Shown here: piece by piece, positions 3,457-61,700 of the stretch
Position numbering within the stretch: position 1 is the stretch's first letter
How the letters are laid out: each line of letters opens with the position of its first letter
From: an uncultured Bacteroides sp.
Lineage (GTDB): Bacteria > Bacteroidota > Bacteroidia > Bacteroidales > GCA-2748055
Assembly (NCBI GenBank): GCA_964453785.1
Contig: CAYVRK010000010.1
Span: forward strand, 1,117 to 65,116
Direction: 5' to 3'
Length of the DNA stretch: 64,000 nt
Made by a program: the position numbers and the translations under genes
Notes under the pieces: model-generated
The model's database searches: none
Told to the model about the DNA's origin: nothing
Seen by the model: only the letters and a program-made list of their open reading frames with translations

Positions 3457-3513
3457 GGTTTCACTTTTTTAGATTAATAATGAATGTGTTTTTCACGCTG
3501 TATAATTTTAGTT

Positions 3514-5061: not shown

Positions 5062-5074
5062 GGTAGAAATGTTT

Positions 5075-8167: not shown

Positions 8168-8223
8168 TTGGTATACAGATTTAAAATTTTAGTCATTCAG
8201 TTAAATCTTATTGCGCTGCTGTC

Positions 8224-9945: not shown

Positions 9946-9951
9946 TGTTTT

Positions 9952-12290: not shown

Positions 12291-12434
12291 GTGTTGTTTC
12301 ACAGATATGGTAAGTTCAAGTACCGACAAATCCACCGGTTTGGCTTCCGGCCTGTGACCAAAGTTGTCCGCCCTGTTCCCAAAATGCATCTCAATATTTA
12401 GTCTGTAATCAATTAAATTGTTGTAACTTACTCT

Positions 12435-12448
12435 GTTGAGTACTCAAC
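12435..12448. promoter_or_regulatory. Perfect 14-bp palindrome GTTGAGTACTCAAC, 23 bp upstream of the HTCS start (candidate operator)
   Basis: Read directly from the sequence. It lies in the divergent GH130/HTCS intergenic region. Confidence 0.25.
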
Positions 12449-12470
12449 TTCTTTTTCTCTAATCCACCAT

Positions 12471-16622: not shown

Positions 16623-16634
16623 TAAGATGTCTTA

Positions 16635-17924: not shown

Positions 17925-17947
17925 TGCACTATTTTTTTGTGGGTGTT

Positions 17948-18637
17948 TTAATTCAATTCCTTAATTGAAATGTTCCTGAACCAAAGCACATACCCGTGTC
18001 CCAGAAAACCAATATGGCCCCCCTTGTTTCCTAAACCCGGGTGGTCTTTCCCATCGATGGTCCTTCCGTTTTTGATATACAATCCAATGTCTCCATCAAG
18101 GATCACAGTACCATTCAAAGTGACCTTGATTTTTGATCCATCGGCAATGACTTCCTGGCTGTTCCACTCCCCTACTGGTTTCAGATAACCCCTTAAGGCC
18201 GGAATAACCCCGTATACCGAACCATGGTACTGGTAACAGTGCAAATCCTTGTATACTTCTGCATCATTATCCAATATCTGAATCTCCATTCCAACATAAG
18301 CCGCATCACCTTTGGTTGGTGTCCTGATTCCCAATCCATTGTTTGCTCCTTCGGTCAGCTTAAACTCGAAGCGGAAAATGAAGTTGTCGTATTGTTCTTT
18401 TGTGTAGAGATTCCCTCCCCCTTCGCCTTTGGAAGGCCTTACAGCCAGGGTCCCATCCTCGATGGCATAAGATTTTGTATCGCCGGTCCAGGAGTCCATG
18501 CTGCTTCCATCAAACAGGACTGTAAAACCCTGTTCCGGTACAAAGGATGGATCTTTCATCTTATTTTCCTGTGCAGTTGAAACCTGAATACAGGTACTCA
18601 GCAAAAAAACCAATTGAATGCTTTTCGGTATAGACAT
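17948..18637 (-). CDS. DUF1080 (3-keto-disaccharide hydrolase-like, concanavalin-type) secreted protein
   Basis: 229 aa with a signal peptide. Family-typical motifs are GFTVLFDGSSMDSW, FIFRFEFKLTEGANNGLGIR, EIQILDN, NGTVILD and the C-terminal GHIGFLGHGYVLWFRNISIKEL. Confidence 0.8.
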   Translation of the reverse strand: MSIPKSIQLVFLLSTCIQVSTAQENKMKDPSFVPEQGFTVLFDGSSMDSWTGDTKSYAIEDGTLAVRPSKGEGGGNLYTKEQYDNFIFRFEFKLTEGANNGLGIRTPTKGDAAYVGMEIQILDNDAEVYKDLHCYQYHGSVYGVIPALRGYLKPVGEWNSQEVIADGSKIKVTLNGTVILDGDIGLYIKNGRTIDGKDHPGLGNKGGHIGFLGHGYVLWFRNISIKELN

Positions 18638-39115: not shown

Positions 39116-40156
39116 ATGACTTTACGACTCGACAATACCCGCCGGGAATTCCTGAGAAAGCTGATTGCCGGCACCTCCATGATGGGAATGGCTCCTGTGA
39201 TAAGCAGCCTGCAATCCTGTGCAGGACCTGGTCAGAAAATTGGTCTTCCGCAAAGAACTTTTGGGGACACCGGTGAAAAAATAGGGATCTATAGCCTTGG
39301 AGCACAGGCCACGGTGGAACAGGTCGGTATGCAGACACAGGCTGTGGAAATCATCAACAGGTGCATCGACCTTGGCATCAACTACATTGACACATCGGCA
39401 TGGTACGGTATGGACGGGACCAGCAGCGAGGGGGATCATCTCAGGGGAACCAGTGAAAGACATGTGGGAGAGGTGATGAAAACACGCCGCAATGAGGTGT
39501 TTCTGGCCACCAAAACCCATGACAGGAGTTATGACGGGGCCATGCGGCACCTGGAGAGTTCACTGAAGAACCTGCAGACCGACACCATTGACCTCTGGCA
39601 GATCCACAACATCAAAGGAGGCGGGAACGAGGATATCGACTATATCTTTTCCGATGAGGGTTGTTTGAAGGCATTGCAAAAAGCCAAAGATGAGAAGGTG
39701 GTCCGCTTCCTGGGCATCACGGGCCATGCAGATCCCGACCCCATGAAGCAACTGATCGAGCGTTATCATTTCGATACGGTACTGATGGCCCTGAATGCGG
39801 CTGACAAACACTACAACTCCTTTATCGAGAAGCTGATGCCCACAGCAGTAGAAAAGAACATGGGTATCATCGGCATGAAGATCCCTGCAAGGGACCGGAT
39901 CTTCGATCATGGGGGGATCATCAGCATGAAAGAGGCCATGAGCTACACCATGTCACTTCCGGTAAGCACCATCATTGTTGGAATTGATAAGATTGCTGAA
40001 CTGGAAGAGAACATTAAAATCGCACAGGAATTTGAACCCCTCACTGTGGATGAAATGCTGGCCATCGAAGACAAGGTGAAGCCCTATTACGAACACCTGA
40101 TGTTTTACAAAGGATTGTCCGACTGGCCCGAGGTTTGGTCAGGCAACAACGTATAA
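39116..40156 (+). CDS. Tat-exported aldo/keto reductase
   Basis: Twin-arginine leader TRREFLRKLIAGTSMMGMAPV. AKR motifs GINYIDTSAWYG, VFLATK, IDLWQIHN and RFLGITGH. Confidence 0.85.
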   Translation: MTLRLDNTRREFLRKLIAGTSMMGMAPVISSLQSCAGPGQKIGLPQRTFGDTGEKIGIYSLGAQATVEQVGMQTQAVEIINRCIDLGINYIDTSAWYGMDGTSSEGDHLRGTSERHVGEVMKTRRNEVFLATKTHDRSYDGAMRHLESSLKNLQTDTIDLWQIHNIKGGGNEDIDYIFSDEGCLKALQKAKDEKVVRFLGITGHADPDPMKQLIERYHFDTVLMALNAADKHYNSFIEKLMPTAVEKNMGIIGMKIPARDRIFDHGGIISMKEAMSYTMSLPVSTIIVGIDKIAELEENIKIAQEFEPLTVDEMLAIEDKVKPYYEHLMFYKGLSDWPEVWSGNNV

Positions 40157-40184: not shown

Positions 40185-42380
40185 ATGGAACAGCAGGTGA
40201 CATCATCCTATCACGGATTCAGAATCTTCCTTATATCTTCTATTTTCTTTTTCCTGCTGGTCTTTCCATTTATGATCTACATGGGGATCCAAAGTCTGCC
40301 TGCAGTAGCCGAACGGGAGGGTCTTTTCAGAAACGATTCCACCGGGCTGACCAATTCTTCAAAGATTTTCTCGGATTCCATCAGCGAATTCACCCCGGAG
40401 AATTTTGACAGTCTGATAAACCAGGCCGTTGTGAAGGGTGAGAAATTAGCCGACACCATTGTGAAGAAACGTACCCCCGGCGGGATCATCTCTTTCCAGG
40501 ATGACGGGGAAGAGGTCAACGCCTTCGATAAAAAAGGGCCCTTTTTGAAGTTTTTCAAATGGTTCTTCATGTTAACGCTGCTCAGTTACATTGCAGGATT
40601 AATGTATAACATCCGGTTTAAGATATTCTTCAAAAGAAAGCAGCGCAAACAGGAAATATCCGAAAAAATTCAATCTTTCTGCAAAAAACAGCTTCTTCAC
40701 ACTCCTCTGGTCAATGCCCTGATCATCACCCTGCCCAACCTGGTGCTCATCATCTTCTCCCTGGTCTATATCCTCTCCGGGCATGAGTACAGCACGGATA
40801 CAGAAAGGGATCTGTTTGTCCAGTTCTTCTACCTCACACTGGCAGCCTCACTGCTGGAATTCCTGTTTGCCTTCTACTGGCAGAAACACAGGGTTCAGCT
40901 GAAATATATTGACTATGTTTATCCAGCCGAGGAACTGAGGACCCGTGTATTTCGGAGGAAGGGAGGCAAGATCAGACACCGCTATATCATTGCCAGTGTA
41001 ATCACCACCCTGCTTCCACTCCTGATTGTTGCGGTATACCTGATCCTGAGCATGACTTCTGTGAAAGAGCTGGATCTTGACACGATCTCCAATGAACAAA
41101 TTGATATCCTGATTGGTCCCTGGGGATCCCTGTTCCACCTTGATCAGGTTTCCTTTAACATGGAGAAATTAGGTTGGTTGTTCTATGTTAATGCCGGAGA
41201 TTCCCTGTTGATGATTATCGGGATCTGTAACGGGATCCTGGTCACCTTCATCTACCTGTTGCTCCTGATTAAGTGGACAAGCCAGGACATAACCCGCCCG
41301 GTAAAGGAAATCCTGATGAACATGAGAAACACCAAGGGAGGTGCCATAGAGCAATACACCATCGTACGGACCAACGATGAGATCGGGGAACTGGCCGAGG
41401 GATACAATGAGATGACCAGCAAGATCCATGATCACATGGAGCATATTTTCACCATGAACCGTGACCTGGAACTTACCGTTGAAGAACGGACGCAGGAGGT
41501 GGTTATGCAGAAAGAAGAGATCGAAGCACAGAAGGAGGAGATCGAGGCTCAACTGGACCTGACCATGCTCCAGCGGGATACCATCTCAAACCAAAAGGAA
41601 CAGATTCTGGACTCGATTCGCTATGCAGAGAAAATCCAGTCGGCCCTTCTTCCTCCCGACAGATACCTTGCCGAATCACTTACTGACCATTTCATCCTGT
41701 TCAAGCCCAGAGATATTGTCAGCGGTGATTATTACTGGACAACCTTCAAAGATGGCAAGCTTCTGATCGCTGTGGCTGATTGCACGGGACACGGTGTCCC
41801 GGGAGCATTCCTGAGCGTGCTAGGAATTTCCTCCATGAATGAGATCGTGAACAGGGAAGGGATATCCAAGGCCAGCCATATCCTGGAGCACCTTAGAAAC
41901 TTTGTGATCCAAACTTTGCACCAGACCGGGGCCCGGGGCGAAGCACAGGACGGGATCGAAATCGCCCTGTGCATCATTGATACAAAGAAGCTTTCCCTGG
42001 AATTTGCGGGTGCAAACAGACCCCTTTACCTGGTCAGATCTGTCACCGGCAAAACGGGTGAAACCAAACCCGAACTGATTCATATCAGGGGGGACAGGAT
42101 GCCGATCGGGATCTACCAGCAGGAGGCTGATCCATTTACCAACCATAGCCTGAAACTGAAGAAGGATGATACCATCTACCTCTTCTCAGATGGCTATACA
42201 GATCAGCTGGGGGGTGCTAAAAGAAAGACATTCCGTTCGGTACATTTCAGGGAACTGCTCATGCAAATCCAGGATAAGACCATGGACCAGCAGAAAAGGA
42301 TTCTTCTTGAGAATCATGAATCATGGCGCGGAGAGGTGGAGCAGATTGATGATATTCTTGTGGTGGGAATCAGGTTGTAA
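40185..42380 (+). CDS. Membrane-bound PP2C/SpoIIE-family Ser/Thr phosphatase with a HAMP-like linker and coiled coil (SiaA/RsbU-like)
   Basis: Six hydrophobic helices lie in the first ~370 aa. HAMP-like ITRPVKEILMNMRN...NDEIGELAEGYNEMT. Coiled coil with QKEEIEAQKEEIEAQ. PP2C motifs SGDYYW, AVADCTGHGVPGAFLS, LFSDGYTDQ and DDILVVGIRL. Confidence 0.85.
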   Translation: MEQQVTSSYHGFRIFLISSIFFFLLVFPFMIYMGIQSLPAVAEREGLFRNDSTGLTNSSKIFSDSISEFTPENFDSLINQAVVKGEKLADTIVKKRTPGGIISFQDDGEEVNAFDKKGPFLKFFKWFFMLTLLSYIAGLMYNIRFKIFFKRKQRKQEISEKIQSFCKKQLLHTPLVNALIITLPNLVLIIFSLVYILSGHEYSTDTERDLFVQFFYLTLAASLLEFLFAFYWQKHRVQLKYIDYVYPAEELRTRVFRRKGGKIRHRYIIASVITTLLPLLIVAVYLILSMTSVKELDLDTISNEQIDILIGPWGSLFHLDQVSFNMEKLGWLFYVNAGDSLLMIIGICNGILVTFIYLLLLIKWTSQDITRPVKEILMNMRNTKGGAIEQYTIVRTNDEIGELAEGYNEMTSKIHDHMEHIFTMNRDLELTVEERTQEVVMQKEEIEAQKEEIEAQLDLTMLQRDTISNQKEQILDSIRYAEKIQSALLPPDRYLAESLTDHFILFKPRDIVSGDYYWTTFKDGKLLIAVADCTGHGVPGAFLSVLGISSMNEIVNREGISKASHILEHLRNFVIQTLHQTGARGEAQDGIEIALCIIDTKKLSLEFAGANRPLYLVRSVTGKTGETKPELIHIRGDRMPIGIYQQEADPFTNHSLKLKKDDTIYLFSDGYTDQLGGAKRKTFRSVHFRELLMQIQDKTMDQQKRILLENHESWRGEVEQIDDILVVGIRL

Positions 42381-42392
42381 GGATTTTCCCTC

Positions 42393-42773
42393 CTATATCT
42401 CTTCCTTCACATAATCAAATTTAATCCCGGACATCCTGGACATTTCCAGTCCTACTTCATACATGTCCTCATCATCCTCTTCATAATGCCATTTCACTCC
42501 GACATCAGTTCCGGATTCCTGAATGGAATGAAGGATCTTGAAGATATCCAGAATGTATTTGGCCGACGTGGAATTGAAGTACTCTAAATTAAATTTGAAA
42601 GTGCATGGACCGGTATCCCCGGCTGCAAACTGCTCCAGCCATTCCAGGATGGGTATATAAAAATTTCTTACGTTTTCAGGTCGTGATTCACCGGAAAACT
42701 CAAACAGTTTTTCCACGGGATCCAGAACAACGCCGGGGGAATTTAATGTGGGTTCAATGGTCAGTTTTTCCAT
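42393..42773 (-). CDS. DUF1987 / SiaC-like partner-switch phosphoprotein
   Basis: 126 aa. Family-typical TPGVVLD-like NSPGVVLDPVEKLFEFSGESRPENVRNFYIPILEWL and FKFNLEYFNSTSAKYILDIFKIL. Confidence 0.72.
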   Translation of the reverse strand: MEKLTIEPTLNSPGVVLDPVEKLFEFSGESRPENVRNFYIPILEWLEQFAAGDTGPCTFKFNLEYFNSTSAKYILDIFKILHSIQESGTDVGVKWHYEEDDEDMYEVGLEMSRMSGIKFDYVKEEI

Positions 42774-42776
42774 GAG

Positions 42777-43289
42777 TTATCCGTTTAGGGTGATTTTCAT
42801 CTCAAAAAAAGAATGGTCCGCATCCACGGGGGCGAAACTGTACTCAATATCTGAATCTGTACGCATAGCCATGGTGATCAGCCCCAGTCCCGCCCCGGTA
42901 TCACTGGCGCTTGATTCTTTATTGATTACCTCTTCGTATAAAGATTTAAGTGCTTCAAAGTCCAGTTGATTTACCCTGTCGAGCTTAAATTTCAGGTCCC
43001 CTATATCGTCATTCAGAACCAGGTTGCCGACCCTGACATAGTATTGATCCTTCTGCTTCATCACAATGATCTTTGGAGTCCGGGATGAATTGCGGGATTT
43101 CCCTGGCAACTTGGCTCCATATTTGAAAATGTTATCGATGGATTCGACGAAGATCCCGTAAAGCCTTTTTTTTGACGGTTTATTCATCTTCTGGAATTCC
43201 TGGTTGTCCCTCAAAGTATTCAATAGTATTTCAATAGTCCCAAAGGTAATGGCACCTTCAAAATCTACCAGGGTTGCTGATTTCGACAT
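42777..43289 (-). CDS. SiaB-like GHKL-type protein kinase (anti-sigma-kinase fold)
   Basis: 170 aa. FEGAITFGTIEILLNTL, IFVESIDNIFKYG (N-box-like) and DTGAGLGLITMA (G-box). It lies 3 bp upstream of the SiaC-like gene. Confidence 0.68.
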   Translation of the reverse strand: MSKSATLVDFEGAITFGTIEILLNTLRDNQEFQKMNKPSKKRLYGIFVESIDNIFKYGAKLPGKSRNSSRTPKIIVMKQKDQYYVRVGNLVLNDDIGDLKFKLDRVNQLDFEALKSLYEEVINKESSASDTGAGLGLITMAMRTDSDIEYSFAPVDADHSFFEMKITLNG

Positions 43290-43332
43290 TCCGTTTACAA
43301 AGAAAAGAAAAAAATAGTTACCTTAATCATCC

Positions 43333-46300
43333 ATGAGCGAAGCCATATTAAAAGCCTTGATGCAATTGTTTGCATTGATCATCGACATAGACGAGGTCGA
43401 TGAGATTTCTGACAGGGAAAGGGAGATTATCCGGGCTTTTCTCACGCGCCAGCTGAGCACTGAACTGGTGGATAAGTACCTGAAAGTATTCGATGAGTAT
43501 CTGGCGCTCTATCACCAGGACAGGATCACAAAGGGCAGTCTAAGGGACAAAAAACGAACCTCCCTGACCGCAGTCAGAATTCTTGGGATCTGCCAAAAAA
43601 TCAACGAGGAACTGGAACAGAAGCAGAAAATTTATGTTCTCATCCAGCTTATTGAATATATTGCTTACGGAATTGAGATCCGTGAGAAAGAGTTGGATTT
43701 TCTCAATACAGTTGCCTCTGCATTCAATATCCATGAGGAAGAGTATGAGAACATCCTCAGGTTTGTGGCCTATTCCCGTGAAGAGATCCCACAGAAAAGC
43801 AGGGTCCTGGTGATCAACAGTGAGGATACAGCGATCTACGAAGAGGTCCATCACATCAGAGACGAGAAGATGACCGGAGAGATCTCTTTTTTGAGCATTG
43901 AAAGTGTGAACACATTTGTCCTCAGGTACCATGGAAAAGAGGACCTGTATCTCAACGGGCAACATCTTCAGACGGGGACAACCACTACCTTCGAATACGG
44001 ATCCTCCATCAGGGGTTCAAGCATTGACACCATCTACTATTCTGATGTGGCAGGGGTGTTTTCAAAGTCCTCCATTGCTTTCAGCCTCACCTTTGAGGCA
44101 AGAGGTGTGGAATTCAGGTTTCGAAACAGTAAGAACGGTATTCAGGAATTCAACCTGCAGGAAGAATCGGGAACGCTGGTTGGAATAATGGGAGGAAGCG
44201 GTGTAGGGAAATCCACCTTGTTGAATGTACTGAACGGCAACCTGAAACCCATGAGCGGTGAGATCCTGATCAACGGAATCAACATCCACGATGAAAAAGA
44301 GAAGGAGAAGCTGAACGGGGTCATTGGTTTTATCCCACAGGACGACCTGCTGATTGAGGACCTGACCGTATATCAAAACCTCTACTACAATGCACTACTC
44401 TGCCTGGACCGGTATGAGGATCAGCAGATCAGGGAAGTGGTGGACCGGGTGCTGGTGGACCTGGATCTGTATGAGATCCGGAACCTGAAGGTGGGAAAAC
44501 CACTGAACAAAGTTATAAGCGGGGGCCAGCGGAAAAGGGTGAATATTGGTCTGGAGCTGATCAGGGAACCATCAGTCCTTTTCGTGGATGAACCCACCTC
44601 CGGACTGTCATCGGTGGACTCAGAAATGGTCATGACCCTGCTGAAAGAACAGGTCTACAAAGGCAAACTGGTGTTCGTAAACATCCACCAACCATCTTCT
44701 GACCTTTACAAGATGTTCGATAAGATCATCTTCATGGACAAGGGCGGTTACCAGATCTATTATGGCAATCCCTCCGAAGCCGTGGTCTACTTCAAGACCA
44801 AAAGCAAGCATGCCAATGCCAAGGAGGACCAGTGTCCCAGATGCGGGAACATTGATCCGGACCAGGTGATGCAGATCATCGAGGCAAAGATAGTCAATGA
44901 ACACGGCAAACTCTCCAGGACCAGAAAAGTAAGCCCGAAAGAATGGTTTGCACGCTATAAGGAAGGCAAGCCACCGAACCCGGAAAAAAAGCAGGAAAAA
45001 GCGGAACTTCCCGAGAATTATTACAGCATCCCGGGGCTCCTGAAACAATTGAAGATATATTTCATCCGTGATCTCCTTTCAAAGCTGACCAACAAACAGT
45101 ATGTCCTGATCAGTTTGTTGGAGGCGCCGCTACTGGCTGTGATCCTGGGTTATTTCACCAAGTACGCTAGCGGGGTTTCAGGGAATCCGGCAGCCTATGT
45201 TTTCAGAAACAATGAGAACCTCCCCGCCTTCCTGCTGATGAGCGTCATTGTTTTTTTGTTCCTTGGGCTGACCATCAGTTCGGAAGAGATCATCAAAGAG
45301 CGCAAGATACTTCAAAGAGAGTCCTTCCTGAACCTGAGCAGGGCCAGTTTTCTGAACTCAAAAATACTGATCATGTTCCTGATCTCGGCCATCCAGTCCA
45401 TCTCTTATGTGCTGATCGCTAACTTCATTTTCGAAATCAGAGGAATGACATTTTCTTACTGGCTGATTCTCTTTAGCACATCCTGTTTTGCCAACCTCCT
45501 GGGCCTCAATATTTCGTCAGGACTCAATTCGGTGATCACCATCTATATCCTGGTGCCTTTTCTCCTGATCCCCCAGATTCTCTTTTGCGGTGTCCTTGTG
45601 AAGTTTGACAAGCTGCACCGATCCCTGACCAATTACCAGTATGTCCCTTTTATCGGTGACATGATGACCTCACGGTGGGCTTACGAGGCCCTGTCAGTGG
45701 AACAGTTTAAAAACAACCGGTACATGCGTGAGTTCTTCGACATTGAACAGGAGATCAGCAACAATGCCTACCTGGAATCCTTCCTGCTGCCTTCACTGGA
45801 ATCAAGCATGGATGAAACCCTTCAGTATATGGCCTTGGGGAAAGAGAAAGAACAGGTAAAGCTGAACCTTCAGATGCTGGACCGTCAATTATCGTTTCTG
45901 GCAGACCAGTTTCCACAAGTTCCCGGGACCAGTCCGGAACAGATTGCAGTTAAGTCATTTAACGATTCTGTAGCCAGCGGAATCAAACAATATCTAGAGG
46001 CATTGAGACAGATTGCGCACAAGCAACGTGTCCATGCCAGTGAAGCAAGAAACATGAAGCAGAGACAGTTGACCGATCAACTGGGTGGGGTTGCATCGTA
46101 TACCGCGTTCAGGGATGCCTATGAAAACGTTCAGCTTTCAGACATCCTGCTCAATAACAAGGCCCTGGACAAGATTGAACAGAAAGGTTCCTTATTGATC
46201 AGCAGGTACAATCCGGTTTATATGGAATCCCCGTCAAAGATTGGAAGGGCCCAACTCTATGCAGCACATAAAAGAATCGGGAACTGGAAAATCTCTACGC

Positions 46301-46431
46301 TCTGGTTCAATGTGATGGTAATCTGGTTTACCTGCCTGCTGCTTTACATGACGCTTTACTACGATACGCTCAGAAAAATCCTGGGATTTTTCGACCATGT
46401 AAACCTCGCCAGGCAATCCGGGAATGGTTGA
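43333..46431 (+). CDS. ABCG-type fused ATPase/ABC-2 permease transporter with an N-terminal TerB-like helical module and an FHA-like beta module
   Basis: 1032 aa. Residues 1-140 are a helical bundle, TerB-like (AILKALMQLFALIIDIDEVDEISDREREIIRAFL). Residues ~190-240 read FVLRYHGKEDLYLNGQHLQTGTTTTFEYGSSIRGSS (FHA-like, degenerate). Walker A GGSGVGKST, signature ISGGQRKRV, Walker B LFVDEPTSGLS and ABCG-style H-loop NIHQPS. The C-terminus has 6-7 TM helices. Confidence 0.88.
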   Translation: MSEAILKALMQLFALIIDIDEVDEISDREREIIRAFLTRQLSTELVDKYLKVFDEYLALYHQDRITKGSLRDKKRTSLTAVRILGICQKINEELEQKQKIYVLIQLIEYIAYGIEIREKELDFLNTVASAFNIHEEEYENILRFVAYSREEIPQKSRVLVINSEDTAIYEEVHHIRDEKMTGEISFLSIESVNTFVLRYHGKEDLYLNGQHLQTGTTTTFEYGSSIRGSSIDTIYYSDVAGVFSKSSIAFSLTFEARGVEFRFRNSKNGIQEFNLQEESGTLVGIMGGSGVGKSTLLNVLNGNLKPMSGEILINGINIHDEKEKEKLNGVIGFIPQDDLLIEDLTVYQNLYYNALLCLDRYEDQQIREVVDRVLVDLDLYEIRNLKVGKPLNKVISGGQRKRVNIGLELIREPSVLFVDEPTSGLSSVDSEMVMTLLKEQVYKGKLVFVNIHQPSSDLYKMFDKIIFMDKGGYQIYYGNPSEAVVYFKTKSKHANAKEDQCPRCGNIDPDQVMQIIEAKIVNEHGKLSRTRKVSPKEWFARYKEGKPPNPEKKQEKAELPENYYSIPGLLKQLKIYFIRDLLSKLTNKQYVLISLLEAPLLAVILGYFTKYASGVSGNPAAYVFRNNENLPAFLLMSVIVFLFLGLTISSEEIIKERKILQRESFLNLSRASFLNSKILIMFLISAIQSISYVLIANFIFEIRGMTFSYWLILFSTSCFANLLGLNISSGLNSVITIYILVPFLLIPQILFCGVLVKFDKLHRSLTNYQYVPFIGDMMTSRWAYEALSVEQFKNNRYMREFFDIEQEISNNAYLESFLLPSLESSMDETLQYMALGKEKEQVKLNLQMLDRQLSFLADQFPQVPGTSPEQIAVKSFNDSVASGIKQYLEALRQIAHKQRVHASEARNMKQRQLTDQLGGVASYTAFRDAYENVQLSDILLNNKALDKIEQKGSLLISRYNPVYMESPSKIGRAQLYAAHKRIGNWKISTLWFNVMVIWFTCLLLYMTLYYDTLRKILGFFDHVNLARQSGNG

Positions 46432-46458: not shown

Positions 46459-47631
46459 TCACCCGGCCCGCATGTGCCGCAGTTTGAACAGCCAGGTTCC
46501 CAGGAAAAAGTAAAGGATGGCAAGTACCAGAATGGCTGCCATTTCGGGAAGGATATCCCGGGCCTCCAGTCCCACTACCAGCACCTTGTTCAGAGCATCC
46601 ACCGCCCAGGTAGGAGAGAGAAGATGGTTCAACATCACATCGAATTCCCCCACCGAAAAAAGCCTGCCTCCCGAAACCGGGAAGGCAGCTCCGGTGAAAA
46701 ACATCAGCAGGAACAGGGGGAAGGTCCCGATGATGGCCACCTCCTTGATGGACCTGCACATGGCTGCCACAATGAGACTGAAGCTGATCATGGAGAGCGA
46801 TGTGAGGAAAGCTATCAGGAACAGGATTCCCAGGGTGCCTGGAATCAAGGTATAACCCATCGCCAGCGCTGCCAGGAGGGCAACCACCAGAGAGACAAAG
46901 GCTATAATAATCTGTACCAGGGAGATCCCGCCCAGGAACTCCACAGAAGTAAGCCGTGAGATCTTCAGACGTTCCAGGGTCTTGGTTTCGGGCTCCCTTA
47001 CAATGGCTGCAGAAGCTGAAAAGATAATCATGATGATGGAGAGAATCAGCAGTCCGGGCACATAAAGCTCAAATTCGGACCGGTCTCCCGAATGACCCAG
47101 TGTGGTTTCGGTCCAGGTCACGGGAAGCCGGATACCGGCAGCTTCCAAAATTAGGGCATTGGCCATTTCTTCCGTCCAGATGGCACCCACAATATACTGC
47201 AGGCTGGTCACATTCCCCGCCAGCTCCATCACCGCCGGTGCGGGTGGACTGAGCGTTTGGTCAGCATGTGTCATGATGGAACCGGAAAAGTCTTCCGGGA
47301 TCACCATCAGGACATCTGCTTTACCCTTTTTTAGCTTGTCTATGGCGCTTTCCCTGTCCCTCCCCATTGAATAAACCAGGTTTGCAATTTCTTTATGAGC
47401 CACCGTTTGAAGGGTGTTGATCAGGGTGTCGCCCAGGTTTATCTTCTCGCCCGCATGGACTACTCCCTTGTCCCTGTTGACCAGGATCACCTCGTAGCTC
47501 ACCTCACCCGGGTCCGACATAAGGAAATAGATACCGATAAACAGGGGGGCCATCACCACAATCATGATCAGTATCCAGTAGTCCCTCCACTGCTCCCTGA
47601 CTCCCTTGATAAATACATAATACCACCTCAT
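46459..47631 (-). CDS. ABC-2-type transporter permease
   Basis: 390 aa. One N-terminal TM helix, a large extracytoplasmic loop, then 5 C-terminal TM helices. Its start overlaps the ATPase stop by 4 nt. Confidence 0.8.
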   Translation of the reverse strand: MRWYYVFIKGVREQWRDYWILIMIVVMAPLFIGIYFLMSDPGEVSYEVILVNRDKGVVHAGEKINLGDTLINTLQTVAHKEIANLVYSMGRDRESAIDKLKKGKADVLMVIPEDFSGSIMTHADQTLSPPAPAVMELAGNVTSLQYIVGAIWTEEMANALILEAAGIRLPVTWTETTLGHSGDRSEFELYVPGLLILSIIMIIFSASAAIVREPETKTLERLKISRLTSVEFLGGISLVQIIIAFVSLVVALLAALAMGYTLIPGTLGILFLIAFLTSLSMISFSLIVAAMCRSIKEVAIIGTFPLFLLMFFTGAAFPVSGGRLFSVGEFDVMLNHLLSPTWAVDALNKVLVVGLEARDILPEMAAILVLAILYFFLGTWLFKLRHMRAG

Positions 47632-48605
47632 GACCGCAGGCTTTTGCCGGTTAATTGGATAAATACATCTTCCAGGGTATTCTCGCGCACTTTTAATTCC
47701 AACACAGTAACTTTTTCATACTCCAGAAGCTGATAAATTTCATGAATTCGCGGCACCAGGTCCATGGAGCGGACCACCAGGGTTTCATCTTCGCGGGTTA
47801 CCGTAAAACCTCTCTCGGTCAGCCTCTTCTCTGCCACATGAAGTGCATCTCTTTCATCAGATTGTGTTTTCAGTTCCAGGATGTCCCCCTGGCCAATGGA
47901 GCGTTTCAGATTCCCCGGTGTATCCAGTTTCAGCAACTTCCCCGAATCGATGATGGCCACCCTGTGGGCAAGCCGGTCCGCTTCATCCATGTTGTGGGTG
48001 GTGATGATCACCGTCTTTGTCGCGGCTGTCTCTCTGATGAAATCCCTCACCAGGACCCTGCTCTGTGGATCCAGACCCGCTTCCGGTTCATCAAACACCA
48101 GGATCTCCGGATCGTGCATAAGGGCCAGGATCACATTCATCCGCCTTTTCATTCCTCCCGAAAGCGTGGCCGCCAGCTTATTCTTCTTCCCATCCAGACC
48201 CATGTGGGAAAGCAAGCTGGCTGCCCTTTTCCTGGCCACAGGTCCGGGCACGTTGTACATCCTGGCACTGAATACCAGCTGCTCGAAGCAGGTGAGCCTG
48301 CTCCAGAGGATGTTTTCCTGTGGACAGATGCCCACCCTGGAACGCACTTCCGCCCCCCATTCCTCCTCAATATCCTTTCCTCCCACCAGGACCTGGCCTG
48401 AAGTGGGCTTGAGGAGACCGCACATCATCCGGATGGAGGTGGTTTTACCGGCACCATTGGGTCCGAGCAATCCAAGAATCTCTCCCCGGCGGACCTCCAG
48501 TGAGAGATGATCCACCGCGGCGAGGTCCCCATAGGTTTTAACCAGGTCCCTGACCTCTAGGACAGAGGTAAGATTTGCTGCCGGGATTATCATAGTTCCA
48601 CTCAA
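47628..48605 (-). CDS. ABC transporter ATP-binding protein (ABC-2/DrrA-like exporter ATPase)
   Basis: Walker A GPNGAGKTT, Q-loop ICPQEN, signature LSGGMKRRMNV, Walker B LVFDEPEAGLD and H-loop ITTHNM. Confidence 0.92.
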   Translation of the reverse strand: MSGTMIIPAANLTSVLEVRDLVKTYGDLAAVDHLSLEVRRGEILGLLGPNGAGKTTSIRMMCGLLKPTSGQVLVGGKDIEEEWGAEVRSRVGICPQENILWSRLTCFEQLVFSARMYNVPGPVARKRAASLLSHMGLDGKKNKLAATLSGGMKRRMNVILALMHDPEILVFDEPEAGLDPQSRVLVRDFIRETAATKTVIITTHNMDEADRLAHRVAIIDSGKLLKLDTPGNLKRSIGQGDILELKTQSDERDALHVAEKRLTERGFTVTREDETLVVRSMDLVPRIHEIYQLLEYEKVTVLELKVRENTLEDVFIQLTGKSLRS

Positions 48606-49126: not shown

Positions 49127-50245
49127 ATGATTTCAAACCACCAAAGCATGACACCTTCCACAGATTTGAACTACAGAGACAAATTCTCCAACAGCTTCAA
49201 CCAGCTCTTTTACGATGCATGCAGAATCACCAGGTTTACTCCAACCGAATGCTTTTACTGGTTCAGAACATACCTGAGGCAGAAAAGAAAAGCCATTGCC
49301 AGGAGAAAAGCAGAATCTGAACAGCTCATTGTACCTCCCATCCTTATCTTCAGTTCCACAACCCGGTGCAACCTTCAGTGCAAGGGGTGTTATACCAGAT
49401 CCAGGAACGAAAATCTGGATGAGCTCCCCATTGAAAAGGTATCTGACCTGTTCCGTGAAGCCTCCGAACTGGGGGTTGGTGTGATCATGATTGCAGGAGG
49501 AGAACCCCTGATGAAACCTGAGATTCTCTGGCTGGCTGCAAAACAGAAAGACATCATATTTCCTGTCTTCACAAATGGAATGTTGCTCAACCAGGGCAGC
49601 ATCTCCTTTTTCAGGCATCACAGGAACCTGATACCCATTCTAAGCGTGGAAGGAGAAAGGAATAGAACAGACAGCCGGCGGGGAAAGGGGGTTTATGCCC
49701 GGCTGATCCAGAATATGGAGCGTTTTCATAGCATGCGACAGATGTATGGACTATCTTTCACCCTCACAAGTGAGAACTTCGAGGAAGTAACCCATCCTTT
49801 ACTCATGCGCACCCATCACGATCTTGGTTGCAGGCTTTTTTTTATGGTGGACTATGTCCCTCAATCTGAAACGGATACAGACCTGTGTCTCAAAGATTCA
49901 CAGAAAGCTGGACTCTCTGGCCGCATTGAAAGATTAAGAAAAACCGTTCCAGGATTGTTTATTTCACTTCCAGGTGACGAGGAGAAATATGGGGGATGCC
50001 TGGCAGGTGGACGGGGATTCGCGCACATCAGCGCCTCGGGAAGCCTTGAACCGTGTCCTTTTGCACCCTATTCTGATACTGATCTAAGCAACAGAGGCCT
50101 CAAAGAAGCGCTCGGCTCCCCCTTTATGAAAACCATCAGGGAGTCACATCATATGCTTGGAGAAGCAAAAGGGGGTTGCACACTATGGGAAAACAGGGAT
50201 TGGGTTCGTTCCGAACTTGAATTATCCCTTGCTTCACCTGCCTAA
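49127..50245 (+). CDS. Radical SAM enzyme with a C-terminal Cys-containing extension (not a canonical SPASM)
   Basis: CNLQCKGCY (CX3CX2C), a GGEPL SAM-binding motif, and C-terminal GGCLAGG...LEPCPF...GGCTLW. The start is uncertain (GTG 49097, ATG 49127 or ATG 49148). Confidence 0.8.
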   Translation: MISNHQSMTPSTDLNYRDKFSNSFNQLFYDACRITRFTPTECFYWFRTYLRQKRKAIARRKAESEQLIVPPILIFSSTTRCNLQCKGCYTRSRNENLDELPIEKVSDLFREASELGVGVIMIAGGEPLMKPEILWLAAKQKDIIFPVFTNGMLLNQGSISFFRHHRNLIPILSVEGERNRTDSRRGKGVYARLIQNMERFHSMRQMYGLSFTLTSENFEEVTHPLLMRTHHDLGCRLFFMVDYVPQSETDTDLCLKDSQKAGLSGRIERLRKTVPGLFISLPGDEEKYGGCLAGGRGFAHISASGSLEPCPFAPYSDTDLSNRGLKEALGSPFMKTIRESHHMLGEAKGGCTLWENRDWVRSELELSLASPA

Positions 50246-50763
50246 TTTTCCAGTTCTTCTGTCTCTTCAATTTCATCATAACCCGATGTCCCTATGAAGG
50301 AAACAAACGAGATTTTCCATTCCCCTTCAATCTTCTCCAGGAAGCGCACCTGGATGCTTTTGATCTCTGTCACATCATCGTCATAGGTAGAGGTCCATGT
50401 TTGATCACATACGACAAAGGCCGTGGTGGGATAGATCTTCATCCGCCAGTTGTACTTCTCAACTTTAATGTGAAGGTCCGGGCCCAGAATATCCTCAGTC
50501 TGATCGCCGCTCATGTGTTTTGAAACATTCTCCCACCCTTCCGCAAAAACGTAGTTGTCAGCGCCGGCAGTCAGCCTCATGTTCAGCGAATCATGCACAT
50601 GGGTGGCATACATGGTCTCAAAATCACGTGCCAGGTAGGCGTCGGTTTCCGTGTTGATCACCTTGATGATGGCTTCCCTTTCTTTCTCCATATCAATGGC
50701 TTGCTCGCACCCGGAAAAGGCAAAGGTCAGGAGTACTGCAAGGGATGTGATGGTGTATTTCAT
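50242..50763 (-). CDS. NTF2/SnoaL-like (DUF4440-type) lipoprotein
   Basis: 173 aa with lipobox FAFSGC. NTF2-like pattern KVINTETDAYLARDFETM ... TTAFVVCDQTW ... FLEKIEGEWKISF. Confidence 0.5.
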   Translation of the reverse strand: MKYTITSLAVLLTFAFSGCEQAIDMEKEREAIIKVINTETDAYLARDFETMYATHVHDSLNMRLTAGADNYVFAEGWENVSKHMSGDQTEDILGPDLHIKVEKYNWRMKIYPTTAFVVCDQTWTSTYDDDVTEIKSIQVRFLEKIEGEWKISFVSFIGTSGYDEIEETEELEN

Positions 50764-50848: not shown

Positions 50849-52801
50849 GTGAAACCACATCTAGTCATCGTGTTATTGCTGTTTGCATTTGGCATAAACT
50901 GTATGGCTTCCTCTACACACAATTCCATTCCCGAAAAGGGTGTGCTGGACCTGAGCGGAACCAAGTTCACGAGCAATAGTATTTACAACCTTAACGGCGA
51001 GTGGGAGTTCTACTGGGAAAAACTGCTTACACCTGCCAGTTACAAGGATGAAAAAATGAGCGGTTCCGGAATCATGGTAAGCGTACCCTCCTATTGGGAG
51101 AGCTACGAAGTGAATGGTGAAAAACTCACGGGAGAGGGATACGGCACCTATGCCCTGACCATCATTCTTCCCCAGGGTTACAGGTCAGGTCTCTGTATAG
51201 ACATCCCCCTGTTCGATGTGGCCTATAATTTTTACCTGGACAACAAACTGGTGGGAAGAAACGGGAAAGTGGGAAGCACACGGGAAAAGGAAGAAGCCTG
51301 GTACGAACCTTCACGGTTTTGCTATGTTCCGGATACAGACACCTTACAGATCCTGATCCAAGTCTCCAATTTCCATCACAGGAGAGGGGGATTCTGGCAA
51401 TCATTGCTGATAGGCGGCACCAAAGGGATCCTTGTTAAGGCTGAGCGCAGAAAAATATTCAACTACTCAACCATTGGCGTTCTGTTTTTTTTCACCATAT
51501 TCTTTGTGATTTTCTGGACCTTTTCAAGGAAGGAAACCATCATGCTGCTTTTTGCGCTCACCACCCTGGGCATCCTGATCCGTTCTGTGGTCACCGGGCT
51601 CTATATTTCCAACAACTTTATCTATATTCCGTGGGCCTGGCAGATCCGGATGGAGTATTTCGGCACCTATCTGGCGAATTTAGCCGGAATGATCTTCCTG
51701 CACCGGATGTTTCCCAGGAATTACATGAAGCATGTGATCACGGGCAATACCATTCTCACAGCCCTAATGATGGTCTGCGTAGTCACAATTCCACCCCGGT
51801 TGTTTTCCTACACCATGCTCGTTTTTCAACCCCTGATCCTTCTGTTCCTTACCCATTACCTGCTGGTAAGCTTTTTCGGAATGCTCAGAGGAAAGATCAC
51901 AGATGCCCTTTTCTTCATCTCACTGGGCCTGTTTATCTATGCGCTTACCAACGATATCCTGCTTGCCAATTCAGCCGGATCTGTGAGCAACACCTACCTG
52001 TCCCAGATCTCCTTCCAGGTGTTTATTTTTGCCATGTCAGTAATGATCATCATGCAATGGGTCAGCAATTACAATATAAGGGTCCAACTGGAATCCTCAC
52101 TCCGGTTTAAGAACAAGGTCCTGTCGGTCATTGCCCATGACCTGAAAAACCCCATAGCCAGCATCGCTCAGTTCTCAGACCTGCTGGTCACGAAACCCGG
52201 GCTTGTGGGCAAACGCCAGATTCTCGATTCTCTGCAGGAGTCGTCACAGGCTGCTGTAGCCCTGCTGGACAATCTACTCTACTGGGGAAGGAGCCAGGCA
52301 GATGAATTGTCCGTATCATCTGAGGACCTGAAAATGGAAAGCCTCATTGCCGAAGTAATAGCACTTTTTACCCACATGGCTGCACAGAAAGAGGTGACCC
52401 TCCATTCCAGTGTCTTTCCGGGTACAACGGCATATGCAGACAAAGCCCTGATCAAAATTGTGATACGAAACCTGGTTTCCAACGCTATAAAATTTACCCC
52501 CGGAAAAGGAACTGTGACCATCCAGGTACAACCTGAAAAGAACGAGGTCCGTGTATCTGTGTCAGATACCGGTATTGGTATTAAACAGGAGATCCTGGAG
52601 CAGTTCAATAAAGCGGGCCAGCTAAAATCGACCATGGGGACAGACAAGGAGATCGGAACCGGGCTCGGGCTTCAACTGGTCAGCGACCTGGTTGAAAAAA
52701 GCGGAGGCAAACTGATTATTGACAGCAAGACAGGGAAGGGTTCCACTTTTACGTTTATACTTCCCGTAGGGAAACAACAGAAGAATAATGAGGATAATTA
52801 A
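50849..52801 (+). CDS. 7TMR-DISM-type sensor histidine kinase (extracellular DISMED2 domain, 7 TM, HisKA, HATPase); no receiver domain
   Basis: N-terminal GVLDLSGTKFTSNSIYNLNGEWEFYWEKLLTP, seven hydrophobic helices, H-box IAHDLKNPIASI, N-box LVSNAIKFTPGKG and GTGLGLQLV. The start codon is GTG. Confidence 0.85.
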   Translation: MKPHLVIVLLLFAFGINCMASSTHNSIPEKGVLDLSGTKFTSNSIYNLNGEWEFYWEKLLTPASYKDEKMSGSGIMVSVPSYWESYEVNGEKLTGEGYGTYALTIILPQGYRSGLCIDIPLFDVAYNFYLDNKLVGRNGKVGSTREKEEAWYEPSRFCYVPDTDTLQILIQVSNFHHRRGGFWQSLLIGGTKGILVKAERRKIFNYSTIGVLFFFTIFFVIFWTFSRKETIMLLFALTTLGILIRSVVTGLYISNNFIYIPWAWQIRMEYFGTYLANLAGMIFLHRMFPRNYMKHVITGNTILTALMMVCVVTIPPRLFSYTMLVFQPLILLFLTHYLLVSFFGMLRGKITDALFFISLGLFIYALTNDILLANSAGSVSNTYLSQISFQVFIFAMSVMIIMQWVSNYNIRVQLESSLRFKNKVLSVIAHDLKNPIASIAQFSDLLVTKPGLVGKRQILDSLQESSQAAVALLDNLLYWGRSQADELSVSSEDLKMESLIAEVIALFTHMAAQKEVTLHSSVFPGTTAYADKALIKIVIRNLVSNAIKFTPGKGTVTIQVQPEKNEVRVSVSDTGIGIKQEILEQFNKAGQLKSTMGTDKEIGTGLGLQLVSDLVEKSGGKLIIDSKTGKGSTFTFILPVGKQQKNNEDN

Positions 52802-58711: not shown

Positions 58712-61700
58712 TTATAAAGTGAAAGTCAAACTGAAGCCTACGTTGTAGTTCGCATTTGGATAACTGTTTGATATATAGGGCGTAGTAAGCCGCTGGTCAT
58801 AGAATGCACGGATGGTGAACTTATCACTCAACATGTAGTCAGCCGCCGCCTTCAGACTGAAAATCCGCTGTCCTGCAGTGATCTCGCTGCCCGACAGGTC
58901 CTCCAGCTTACGAATCACCGTGCGGTTGTTGCGCATGGAAAAATCGAGTCTGATGTTCAGGTCACTGCTAAAAGACTTCTGGTTGATTGAAATGGGCACC
59001 TCATTGAAACGGAAACCTGCCCCAATAATGAACTCCCCACTGTTCACTTCATTCACCTGGGTGTTGGCCATGTTCATGGCCACGGTCCTAGATCGCCGGT
59101 ACTCGATCCGCGTGGTCAGGCTGTTTTTCCAGTCCATGTTCAGGTCGATCAGCGGACTGAAATTCTCATTGATGCTCACCGTATTGATGTTTTGTTCCAC
59201 CATGAAATTCCCCTGCAGGTCCTTGGCAATGGGGACTCCGTTGATGGTATCATAGGTAAAGAAAGGGTTGTTAATGAAAGAACCCACGCTGTAGGTAGAG
59301 CGGTAGGAGTGGTTCATCACGATTGAATTCGCGATCTGCTGGAGTGCCGGGATCCTGCCCAAACCGTCAAACCTGACCTGCCAGTTGGGCATGATCTCCA
59401 GGAGGGATCTCACCGCTTTCAGTGAGATCCGGTCCACATCCTGATTCCCATAGGCTGCCAGGAAAGCCGGGATGAGTACCTCCTGGGAGGTGGGCCCATA
59501 CCCCTGCACATAACGGGCATCGGAGGAATCGGGAGGAAGGACAATTCCTGTTTTCTCTGTGTATTCGTCTCCCAGCCTTTGTGAAATATTGATCCGGTAC
59601 TCCTCTTTCAGTTTCAGAAATGTTTTAGAGGATTCAACCTTGTCGTCAATCTTTTCAAAAGAGGTTCCGAAGGAGATGTAGGACATGCTGAAATTACCAC
59701 TGTAAACCCTTCCCCGGGCTGTATCAGCCGGAAGCTCACCGTTCACGGCAGTATAATATTCAGACAGGTTGGAGCTGTACATCCGGTTGGCCGTCAGGTC
59801 GATTTTCAGTCCGTTAAATGGTTCAATATCGGCCCGGGCAGTAAACCGCTCTGTATTGTTCATGTTGAAAGGCTGGTTCAGGGCTTCATCCAGGGTAAGG
59901 ATGTGCCGGCCGAAAGCATCCTTTGCATAATCGGGATTCTGCCAGCCGGATACAAATCCCCATCCCGGTTCAAGATTCCCCCCGTAACCTGTCATTCCAA
60001 AATAGCCCGTACCCAGATTATATCCGGGCAGGAAAGTACCCCCGCTCTTTGAATAGGTGACATTGACCGTCCGCAGGCCCATCAAGATTCGCAGGCTTGT
60101 CTCAGCAACCAGGATCAGGGGATTTTCACCTTTTTGGATGGACCCGGTGACCTGAATGGTAGCGCTTCGAACCGCCTTATCCGAAATAATGCTGATCCGG
60201 GTATCACTGAGGATCTCGGTGGTAACCTCCACAGGCTGGTTGTTTTCATCAAGCACCTCCACGCTGATCTGTTCGGTCCTCAGGTTATGGGTCACATACC
60301 GGGGCTTCCCTTCACGAAGGTAGAGGTTCTCCTTGCTGTATACTTTTGTTTTGGTCCGGGACTCCGCCTCTTTCTGTCTGCTTTTGGCGCTGCGGTATTT
60401 GTTGTTGATCTCCTTCAGGTAATTCACTTTGTTGTAAAGGTTCACCATGTTCAGCTGACCGTTGAGCTGAATGGTATTGGAGTTCTTAATGGAGTTCCCC
60501 AGGTTGATGGAACCGTATTCAGGATCATCCGGAATAATGGGTCCCACAGTCCATCCATAGGTTCCGCCGTACCTCGCATTGGCACTGGTCCAGTCCAGCA
60601 GCGGTATCTTATTGATGGGGATGGTATAGGAAACATTGAATGACTGGATATAACTGGTGACGCGTCCTCCGGCCTTGATGCTTCTCCAGAGTGAATCCCT
60701 GTAAATCTCATAGCTATCCATATCCCGGTTCCACCGCCCGTCAGGCTCATCAATCCGGGCCATGTTGGTGTTTGAAAAATCAAATTTCAGGCTACGGGTA
60801 GGATCATATTTCAGATCAAAATAACGGTTCCACATAAAATCCTTCTTGAAGGTGGGAGCTACAATGAATCCGGGGTTGTTGATATTCCGCACCTGCTTCT
60901 CCAGGTAATACCGGTCCATATCGGTCCGGTAAGAGATTCTCGAAGGAGTGTAGTTGAAATTGAAGTCCTTGACAAGTCTCAGCCAGTCAGAATTCATCCA
61001 TTTAACCGTTTTAAAGGGCTGTACATTTTTTGGCCTTATGTTATAATTGTAGCTCAGGTTCCCCCTGACCTTCCTGGTGTTATAAAAATCCAGATTGGGA
61101 TTCCGGCTCGACATTTCGTTGAGCGAGAAGCTTGCAGAAAAGTTGGAAAGGCTGAAGATCCTCTTCTTCGTCCCTGTCTTGTTCATCCTGATGTTGGTTA
61201 CCGCAAAAGATTTTCGCTCTACCAGGTCCCGTGCATTCCGGATGATGGAATCCCTTTCAACCTTGGTCTCTGCCTCATCAATGGCCTCTTTCAGGGGAAT
61301 ATCAGGATCCAGCGGATTGTATTCGGGATTCACAATAGCCTTTGAGTAACTTGCAAATACAGGAATGTTCACCCCGCTCTCCTGTTTAAAGAATTTACCC
61401 ATCTGCAGATTGGTGGACAGGTCATACTGGATAATCTGTTCACGTTGCCTTTCATTCACTTTCTGTTCGATGCTCCCGAATCCGGGCTGACTGGTATTCC
61501 CGGCCAGGGTGACATTTCCGAAATCGGCCAGTTTTAGTGTGGCCCTGCCGGTAGCAGCCCAGCCTCCGCTTTCATTGAAATCGGTCAGGCGCAATTCGTT
61601 GAGCCAGATCTCCCCCGATTTGGGTAGTCCGTCGTCGGGGCCAAAGGGATTGTTGCCTGCTTTGGGGTTCCGTACCCCAATCATGATAGTCCGAATACTG

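Follow-up and report, generated by a model that had tools for sequence, protein, structure and literature searches.

Which protein does a SiaABC-type phosphorylation switch control when no diguanylate cyclase is encoded beside it? The question is raised by a stretch of 64,000 nucleotides from an uncultured Bacteroides sp. (GenBank assembly GCA_964453785.1, contig CAYVRK010000010.1, positions 1,117 to 65,116 of the forward strand; the window, hereafter), which carries genes for a membrane phosphatase, a kinase and a small phosphoprotein resembling SiaA, SiaB and SiaC of Pseudomonas aeruginosa. In Pseudomonas a switch of this kind governs the formation of biofilms. The locus is very probably such a switch, lacking an adjacent cyclase. 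An earlier reading of the letters without database searches (the sequence-only reading) had described the three genes and called their effector unknown; this has been narrowed to one candidate, an ABC (ATP-binding cassette) exporter encoded at 43333-46431, just beyond the coordinates which that reading gave for the three genes. The proposal that this exporter is the output of the SiaABC-like switch stands, in our judgement, at about an even chance. The features on which the argument draws are listed below, each with its basis.

40185-42380, plus strand: SiaA-like PP2C phosphatase, 731 amino acids (open reading frame (ORF) translation, Pfam, PDB match).
40185-41279, plus strand: N-terminal membrane sensor module of the phosphatase, residues 1-365, with five to six hydrophobic segments (Kyte-Doolittle).
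41280-41429, plus strand: HAMP-like linker, residues 366-415 (sub-threshold Pfam HAMP match).
41430-41624, plus strand: heptad-rich helical (coiled-coil-like) connector, residues 416-480 (conservation, 6K4E alignment).
41751-42374, plus strand: PP2C/SpoIIE catalytic domain, residues 523-730 (PF07228).
42393-42773, minus strand: SiaC-family phosphoprotein, 126 amino acids (PF09345, PDB 6KKO_C).
42564-42572, minus strand: codons for Ser68-Thr69-Ser70 of the SiaC-like protein (translation STS, alignment to 6KKO_C).
42777-43289, minus strand: SiaB-family GHKL-type Ser/Thr kinase, 170 amino acids (DUF6272, NF038262, PDB 6KKO_A).
43290-43332, no strand: divergent intergenic region of 43 base pairs (bp) between the siaB-like and exporter genes (sequence).
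43333-46431, plus strand: ABCG-type half-transporter, 1032 amino acids, proposed output of the switch (Pfam, ABCG1 7fdv, gene neighbourhood).
43333-43770, plus strand: TerB-like helical domain at the N-terminus of the exporter, residues 1-146 (weak Pfam TerB match, AlphaFold2 (AF2) model).
43780-44118, plus strand: FHA-like beta-sandwich of the exporter, modelled residues 150-262 with strands in residues 158-235 (AF2 domain model, Foldseek).

The positions of the first three ORFs and the two gaps given in the sequence-only reading were exact in the ORF translations, and both peptide strings quoted there, DTGAGLGLITMA and FKFNLEYFNSTSAKY, were found in them. The stop codons of the siaA-like and siaC-like genes converge across 12 bp (42381-42392), and the siaB-like gene lies 3 bp upstream of the siaC-like gene on the same strand. 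A sigma-70 scan identified no promoter in the 43-bp gap between the exporter and siaB-like genes, Bacteroidota promoters being outside the models of that scan; sites returned by the sigma-70 promoter and terminator scan, whose models are ill-suited to Bacteroidota, were no more numerous than in shuffled sequence.

The assignment of the 170-residue protein to the SiaB-like GHKL kinases and of the 126-residue protein to the DUF1987/SiaC family was borne out by profile searches. The former matched Pfam DUF6272 (PF19788) at 115 bits (cut-off 26.6) and the NCBIfam SiaB-family kinase model NF038262 at 128.4 bits (cut-off 85), and aligned with P. aeruginosa SiaB (PDB 6KKO_A) with an expectation value (E) of 4.3e-13 and with the E..N and GAGLGL boxes kept. 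The latter matched Pfam SiaC (PF09345) at 117.6 bits (cut-off 24.5) and aligned without gaps with P. aeruginosa SiaC (PDB 6KKO_C; E 3.6e-13). The PP2C/SpoIIE domain previously assigned to the 731-residue protein was likewise recovered (Pfam SpoIIE/PP2C, 77 bits, cut-off 25), and residues 445-730 aligned with the PP2C domain of P. aeruginosa SiaA (PDB 6K4E) at E 9.5e-30. A chance match is no concern at these family bit scores and, as judged from sequence comparison, each of the three proteins is homologous to its P. aeruginosa counterpart, SiaA, SiaB or SiaC. They are classed as family members and not as orthologs of the Pseudomonas proteins because the equivalog models for SiaA (NF038263, 204 bits, the cut-off being 700), SiaB (NF038264, 74.4 against 225) and SiaC (NF038265, 74.7 against 150) scored far below their cut-offs. 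A PP2C phosphatase, a GHKL kinase and a small phospho-acceptor are encoded together, and both enzymes retain their catalytic motifs.

Four motifs of the phosphatase (GDYY, DCTGHGVPGA, SDGYTDQ and DDIL) are common to SiaA and contain D515, D532, D669, D722 and D723, which are at least 97% conserved across 28 full-length sequences and are taken to be the metal-binding residues. The connector aligns with the helix preceding the PP2C domain in 6K4E, and EEIEAQKEEIEAQ together with its flanks is nearly invariant. The HAMP-like linker and the six transmembrane helices proposed in the sequence-only reading stood in part: the HAMP match (20.1 bits, E 8e-4) fell below the cut-off of 25, with HAMP regions of other sensor proteins aligning there and relatives carrying precomputed PF00672 together with SpoIIE, while a Kyte-Doolittle scan gave five clear hydrophobic segments and, by eye, a weaker sixth at about residues 120-145, leaving six helices plausible, not proven. 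The sensor module had no Pfam match; when it was searched for in other proteins four matches were obtained, three with HAMP and SpoIIE domains and one without a precomputed domain. Its loop at residues 35-115 is poorly conserved, and W232, H235, R236, N336 and D339 in the membrane segments are conserved at 97% or more. A different sensor was seen in Chitinophagales-type loci (L044, L045 and L081, of which L081:6750-9956; L numbers denote related loci), where a PP2C phosphatase of about 1060 residues lies upstream of siaB-siaC and a Reg_prop beta-propeller and Y_Y_Y sensor replace the multi-helix membrane module; these loci would therefore feed a different input into the same switch.

The candidate phospho-site proposed for the SiaC-like protein, S68/T69/S70, coincides with a conserved acceptor position, and within it the exact equivalent of Thr68, the phospho-acceptor of P. 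aeruginosa SiaC, is Ser68 and not Thr69 (the P. aeruginosa numbering was verified against the residues named in PMC7647112). Across an alignment of 79 sequences, comprising 78 Bacteroidota homologues and P. aeruginosa SiaC, position 68 is Ser in 42 and Thr in 37, no other residue occurring, and Y65, N67, S70 and K72 are invariant. In P. aeruginosa, Y65, N67, T68 and S69 of SiaC touch the cyclase SiaD; unphosphorylated SiaC clamps the helices of SiaD with the N67-T68-S69 turn and with its own helices 2 and 3, the stalk of SiaD being bound on helix 3 by a surface comprising R103, L107, E110 and D114, and phosphorylation of T68 prevents binding (PMC8457831). The turn is conserved here. Helix 3 is replaced: it consists of an acidic stretch, WHYEEDDEDM, that is nearly invariant in Bacteroidota and unlike the P. 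aeruginosa helix, which points to a conserved partner distinct from SiaD. A search for gene fusions ('Rosetta stone') found the best 120 SiaC homologues all to be stand-alone proteins of 126-136 residues, and their only NCBI name, where one is given, is 'DUF1987 domain-containing protein'.

No cyclase that could take the place of SiaD was found in the regions searched. GG[DE]EF, EAL and HD-GYP motifs were absent from stop-free segments of at least 150 amino acids in the window, as were GGDEF, EAL and HD-GYP Pfam domains from the scanned real-looking ORFs of at least 200 amino acids, in agreement with the sequence-only reading, which had seen no such gene in the 64 kb. Three ORFs of the latter length lay outside the Pfam scan: 47742-48401 (+) and 47881-48510 (+), which overlap an ABC ATPase gene (47628-48605, -), and 61832-62665 (+), which is antisense to and inside a SprA-like ORF. 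The GG[DE]EF motif was also absent from all 1,956 ORFs of 166 loci (165 related loci and the window; 2.25 Mb), so that a GGDEF gene beside orthologous loci, raised in that reading as the mark of a rearranged SiaABCD system, was found at none of the 165.

A survey of the gene neighbourhoods of DUF1987 homologues in Bacteroidota, suggested in the same reading, returned the ABCG-type exporter as the most conserved neighbour of siaB-siaC. The SiaC protein was searched against one genome per species, yielding 80 Bacteroidota loci, and ORFs were called and clustered by BLAST; over 82 loci and the window, the clusters comprised 80 SiaC, 67 SiaB, 52 exporter (the third-largest cluster) and 43 phosphatase members. 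At the 46 assessable loci, where siaC is flanked on either side by 6 kb or more, siaB lay within three genes of siaC in 41, the exporter in 30 and a PP2C gene in 24. The converse survey was made on metagenome contigs, using an alignment of the N-terminal 260 residues of the exporter led by a 42%-identical member. Here, siaC was encoded no more than three genes downstream of the exporter in 32, and siaB in 33, of the 49 loci with a complete exporter gene and at least 1.2 kb downstream, the mapped order being 'ABC> C< B<'; the SiaC and SiaB ORFs were checked by Pfam and matched PF09345 (34/34) and PF19788 (34/34), respectively. The association between siaBC and the exporter is reciprocal, at about 65% each way.

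Two arrangements were found. In the clade of the window (SiaC 62-100% identical) the order is 'ABC< B> C> A<', with the exporter divergent from siaB, across a gap mostly of 34-53 bp, and the phosphatase convergent with siaC. In Cryomorphaceae, other Flavobacteriales and Marinifilum, with SiaC 37-45% identical to that of the window, the order is 'B> C> ABC<', the exporter being convergent with siaC, with no phosphatase nearby and with flanking genes entirely different from those of the window clade. A neighbour-joining tree placed the two arrangements in two separate SiaC lineages. Adjacency to the exporter survives a rearrangement that alters side, orientation and all other neighbours. The system was also found in two named Marinifilum assemblies (L057 and L062, the latter being Marinifilum sp. 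RC60d5). A gene of about 388 codons upstream of siaB in the 'B> C> ABC<' loci was considered as the missing phosphatase and rejected, as it reads by eye as a THUMP-type RNA methyltransferase; no SiaA-like gene was found near the exporter in the exporter-centred metagenome loci.

The core of the exporter matched Pfam ABC_tran (104 bits) and ABC2_membrane (77 bits) and aligned with ABCG1 (7fdv) at E 2.8e-39 across the nucleotide-binding and transmembrane domains; both ABCG1 and ABCG2 align over its ATPase and membrane domains, at E of about 1e-39 to 1e-38, and the predicted core is clearly of ABCG type. PADLOC defence models returned generic ATPase similarity only. Ahead of the ATPase domain are about 260 extra residues, for which an AF2 model (40 homologues, predicted local distance difference test score (pLDDT) of 84) comprised seven helices in residues 1-146 followed by a beta-sandwich in residues 158-235. 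The helical domain scored 21.7 bits for Pfam TerB against a cut-off of 24.4, TerB is precomputed in many relatives, and Foldseek gave a match to 2h5n; its opening 14 residues, MSExILKALMQLFA, hardly vary across members that are 32-81% identical. For a domain-only AF2 model of the beta-sandwich (pLDDT 88), all 50 listed Foldseek PDB matches were FHA domains or FHA-fold proteins, MEK1, KIF1A, Rad53, EssC, OdhI and DgcB among others. Pfam at E up to 1 on the N-terminal 269 residues gave no FHA match, the weak TerB match alone being returned, and a trimmed profile of the N-terminus found nothing significant among PDB sequences, the FHA domain of MEK1 having E 0.31. N208, G209 and G223 are invariant, and G182, S191 and N208-G209 are possible counterparts of the canonical FHA Gly, Ser and Asn by sequence alignment, without residue-level superposition; no His is present at Ser+3 (canonical Ser-x-x-His). 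The modelled beta-sandwich is referred to here as 'FHA-like'.

The N-terminal module occurred in 107 of 107 full-length exporters of the loci. A library of 1.84 billion representatives contained the module in 406 clusters (50% identity) at E of 1e-10 or below, and nearly all full-length matches were of about 1000-1050 residues with the module starting at residue 1. At the other end, a C-terminal extension of about 240 residues (45700-46431, residues ~790-1032) follows the ABC-2 membrane domain; it has no Pfam match and ends in one more hydrophobic segment at residues 990-1008.

The following mechanism is proposed. The SiaB-family kinase would phosphorylate SiaC at Ser68, and the membrane SiaA-like PP2C phosphatase would strip the phosphate off, probably acting on a signal that its module of five to six transmembrane segments and HAMP-like linker would perceive within the membrane or close to it. 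The phosphorylation state of SiaC would determine whether it binds its target, and we infer a contact between SiaC and the exporter in which SiaC would bind the cytoplasmic N-terminal module (TerB-like plus FHA-like) directly ahead of the ATPase domain, turning export on or off through altered ATPase or transport activity. By analogy with SiaC-SiaD the binding form would be unphosphorylated SiaC; the modelled FHA-like fold would equally permit binding of the phosphorylated form. The docking site could accordingly be sought in either half of the module, in the TerB-like helical domain, as with the helices of SiaD, or in the FHA-like domain, should this read phospho-Ser68. DUF1987 is widespread, and the authors of the SiaC-SiaD structure suggested that its members modulate adjacent proteins (PMC8457831). 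The broader proposal, that in many Bacteroidota a SiaB/SiaC switch directly gates an ABCG-type exporter via its TerB-like/FHA-like module in a phosphorylation-dependent manner, is put forward tentatively and with some doubt.

Several observations weigh against the exporter as the output. The link between SiaC and the exporter is drawn from gene neighbourhood only, and it is incomplete: 16 of the 46 SiaC-centred loci have no exporter within three genes (for example in Crocinitomicaceae), 17 of the 49 exporter-centred loci have no SiaC, siaC and STAS genes are both missing from 12 of the 40 exporter loci that could be assessed on both sides, and siaBC does not adjoin two distant relatives of the exporter (29% identity). 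The surroundings of 'B> C> ABC<' also conserve genes that by eye encode an RNA methyltransferase, NadR/PnuC and ClpB, so that the conservation of this arrangement could be partly inherited synteny, and the phosphatase adjoins only in the window clade and, in different form, in the Chitinophagales-type loci. As regards the module, the FHA assignment is by fold only (E 3e-3 to 6e-2, template modelling score 0.34-0.50), and the residue after G182 is mostly E, Q or D, with Arg in 3 of 40, the canonical FHA Arg not being conserved. The loci in which one partner occurs without the other, together with the apparent housekeeping genes conserved around the convergent arrangement, favour a reading in which the switch is real, its target is an unlinked enzyme, transporter or regulator, and the exporter is a co-regulated or syntenic neighbour. 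This is considered rather unlikely, given that the exporter still adjoins after a change of side, orientation and all other neighbours, that its cluster outnumbers that of the switch's own phosphatase in the SiaC-centred clustering, and that a dedicated module of regulatory type makes up its cytoplasmic N-terminus.

The homology of all three proteins to SiaA, SiaB and SiaC and the conservation of the SiaD-contact residues Y65, N67 and S/T68 are also what would be expected of an ordinary SiaABCD system split by rearrangement, with a SiaD-like GGDEF cyclase elsewhere in the genome as the target. Neither the window nor the ORFs of the related loci contained a GG[DE]EF motif, the equivalog models fell far short of their cut-offs, and the surface of helix 3 that binds the SiaD stalk has been swapped for an acidic motif conserved across Bacteroidota, all of which makes a split system very unlikely. 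Also very unlikely is a switch of the anti-sigma type, in which the SiaB-like kinase would sequester a sigma or transcription factor, SiaC would be the antagonist and the output would be transcription. SiaC is structurally nearest to anti-sigma-factor antagonists (PMC7647112), SiaB is a GHKL-type kinase, as are RsbW and SpoIIAB, and a gene that appears by eye to encode an extracytoplasmic function (ECF) sigma factor lies a few genes off in some Crocinitomicaceae loci; set against this, no sigma-factor gene adjoins the locus in the window or is conserved beside siaBC across the loci, and in the only system studied SiaB phosphorylates SiaC and the output runs via SiaC (PMC7647112, PMC8457831).

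Several other genes recur around the exporter homologues. A gene for an Hpt protein and one for a STAS protein (anti-sigma antagonist-like, IDS[ST]GFG) lie upstream, in the same orientation, at L084:7186-7887 and at 14-15 of the 51 metagenome loci (L086, L108, L136, L143 and L152 are examples), in some cases directly adjoining, often with other genes between. STAS as a substitute for SiaC beside the exporter was considered and rejected: Hpt and STAS occur together with siaB-siaC in eight loci, and genes that by eye are ClpB-like and flavin-reductase-like often separate STAS from the exporter. At 31 of the 51 loci the exporter is preceded on the same strand by genes for a putative lipoprotein of about 305 residues and a secreted protein of about 141 residues, neither with a Pfam match (L093-L165, e.g. 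L117:504-1421 and L105:1011-1436, and also L043-L062); the two proteins may work with the exporter in the periplasm or outer membrane, and their genes are absent from the window. A second siaC gene, its product 32-36% identical to the exporter-adjacent copy, was found at L094:15491-16449, L095:15429-16361, L119:12422-12805 and L088:16318-16722, directly upstream of a gene for an S41 C-terminal processing peptidase and a few kb from the exporter-linked pair; in L094 and L095 it follows a siaB of its own, and it may reflect a second output or mere synteny. Finally, a 7TMR-DISM histidine kinase gene (50849-52801 in the window) and a 173-residue ORF without a Pfam match (50242-50763) directly adjoin the exporter in L007, L008, L012, L014 and L017, and in the window lie about 4 kb from it, with a pair of ABC-2 transporter genes and a radical S-adenosylmethionine gene in between.

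On the phosphatase side of the locus, one further gene was noted.

39116-40156, plus strand: aldo/keto reductase with a twin-arginine-type signal (TRREFLRK), a peripheral part of the locus (Pfam Aldo_ket_red, 90 bits; signal read from the translation).

A gap of 28 bp separates this gene from the phosphatase gene downstream, which has the same orientation, and the two probably share a transcript. On the map, by eye, it adjoins the phosphatase gene or is one gene off in about 20 of 31 window-type relatives that bear the phosphatase, and a periplasmic reductase made from one transcript with the sensor phosphatase might have a bearing on the signal sensed. Elsewhere, Pfam scans of the window returned SusC/SusD, GH130, GH10, GH2, hybrid two-component systems and SprA, as in an ordinary Bacteroidota chromosome. 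A polysaccharide utilisation locus at 2395-18637 comprises a SusC/SusD pair, GH130, a Laminin_G_3 protein, a 3-keto-disaccharide hydrolase, a GFO/IDH/MocA oxidoreductase and a 1383-residue hybrid two-component regulator, and includes two ORFs without a Pfam match (8224-9945 and 9952-11244). The 1748-residue ORF at 58712-63958 (-) matched SprA_N at 585 bits and would be a type IX secretion translocon, in keeping with a Bacteroidota chromosome.

A SiaABC switch in Bacteroidota that has no nearby cyclase is tied by gene neighbourhood to one exporter family, whichever side the survey starts from and in both arrangements. The question of what SiaC-like proteins target outside Pseudomonas is thereby turned into a testable pair of small soluble pieces, SiaC and exporter residues 1-263, and genetics may be feasible in the Marinifilum carriers. 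SiaABCD is the only DUF1987 system studied, with a diguanylate cyclase as its output; in the literature searched, no paper tied SiaC/DUF1987 to a transporter or to Bacteroidota, and no DUF1987 target was named beyond a diguanylate cyclase. If the switch does act on the exporter, no earlier partner switch would have had a transporter in place of a sigma factor or cyclase as its output, this would be the first function of DUF1987 outside cyclic di-GMP signalling, and transport would join the partner-switched processes. Should the FHA-like domain read phospho-Ser68, the polarity would be opposite to that in Pseudomonas, in which SiaC binds its target only when unphosphorylated.

In classical partner switching, one Ser/Thr of a small alpha/beta protein is phosphorylated by a GHKL kinase and dephosphorylated by a PP2C phosphatase, and its state decides which partner the protein binds. 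RsbU/RsbV/RsbW, SpoIIE/SpoIIAA/SpoIIAB, HsbR/HsbA-HsbD and BgrSTUWV follow the same partner-switch logic as the locus described here (discussion in PMC8457831). HsbR/HsbA-HsbD and BgrSTUWV are STAS-based and control diguanylate cyclases, whereas the small protein of the window is of the DUF1987 family and not STAS by sequence, and no sigma factor or cyclase is present at the window locus; the Hpt and STAS gene pairs upstream of exporter homologues occur in some relatives and not in the window. For the proposed output, the closest likeness is to Rv1747, an ABC exporter of Mycobacterium tuberculosis that bears FHA domains and is under the control of the Ser/Thr kinase PknF (PMC3138270, PMC3908365). 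Compared by description, the two have in common N-terminal cytoplasmic domain(s) of FHA or FHA-like type, an adjoining kinase gene and transport regulated, or proposed to be regulated, by Ser/Thr phosphorylation. They differ in that the kinase of Rv1747 is of Hanks type and that of the window is the GHKL-type SiaB, whose known substrate class is a separate small protein and not a transporter, and in that the window exporter has one FHA-like domain (by fold only, the phosphate-binding Arg not being conserved) placed after a TerB-like domain.

The nearest relative of the switch itself is SiaABCD of P. aeruginosa (PA0172-PA0169), with which it shares a membrane HAMP-PP2C phosphatase, a DUF6272 kinase and a DUF1987 phosphoprotein, each detectably homologous, the acceptor and neighbouring contact residues being kept. 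SiaABCD includes the GGDEF cyclase SiaD, which is activated by SiaC, whereas the window locus has no SiaD or GGDEF gene; SiaABCD is a single operon with the phosphatase gene first, whereas here the siaA-like gene runs against siaBC, on the other strand and convergent with it. Because SiaD and a single operon are both lacking, the locus is not filed as a SiaABCD system. Further differences are the acceptor, Thr in P. aeruginosa SiaC and Ser in that of the window, the helix-3 surface of SiaC, the scores of all three proteins below the equivalog cut-offs, a sensor module of five to six transmembrane segments with no relatives outside its family and, in the reading preferred here, an output that would be an ABC exporter.

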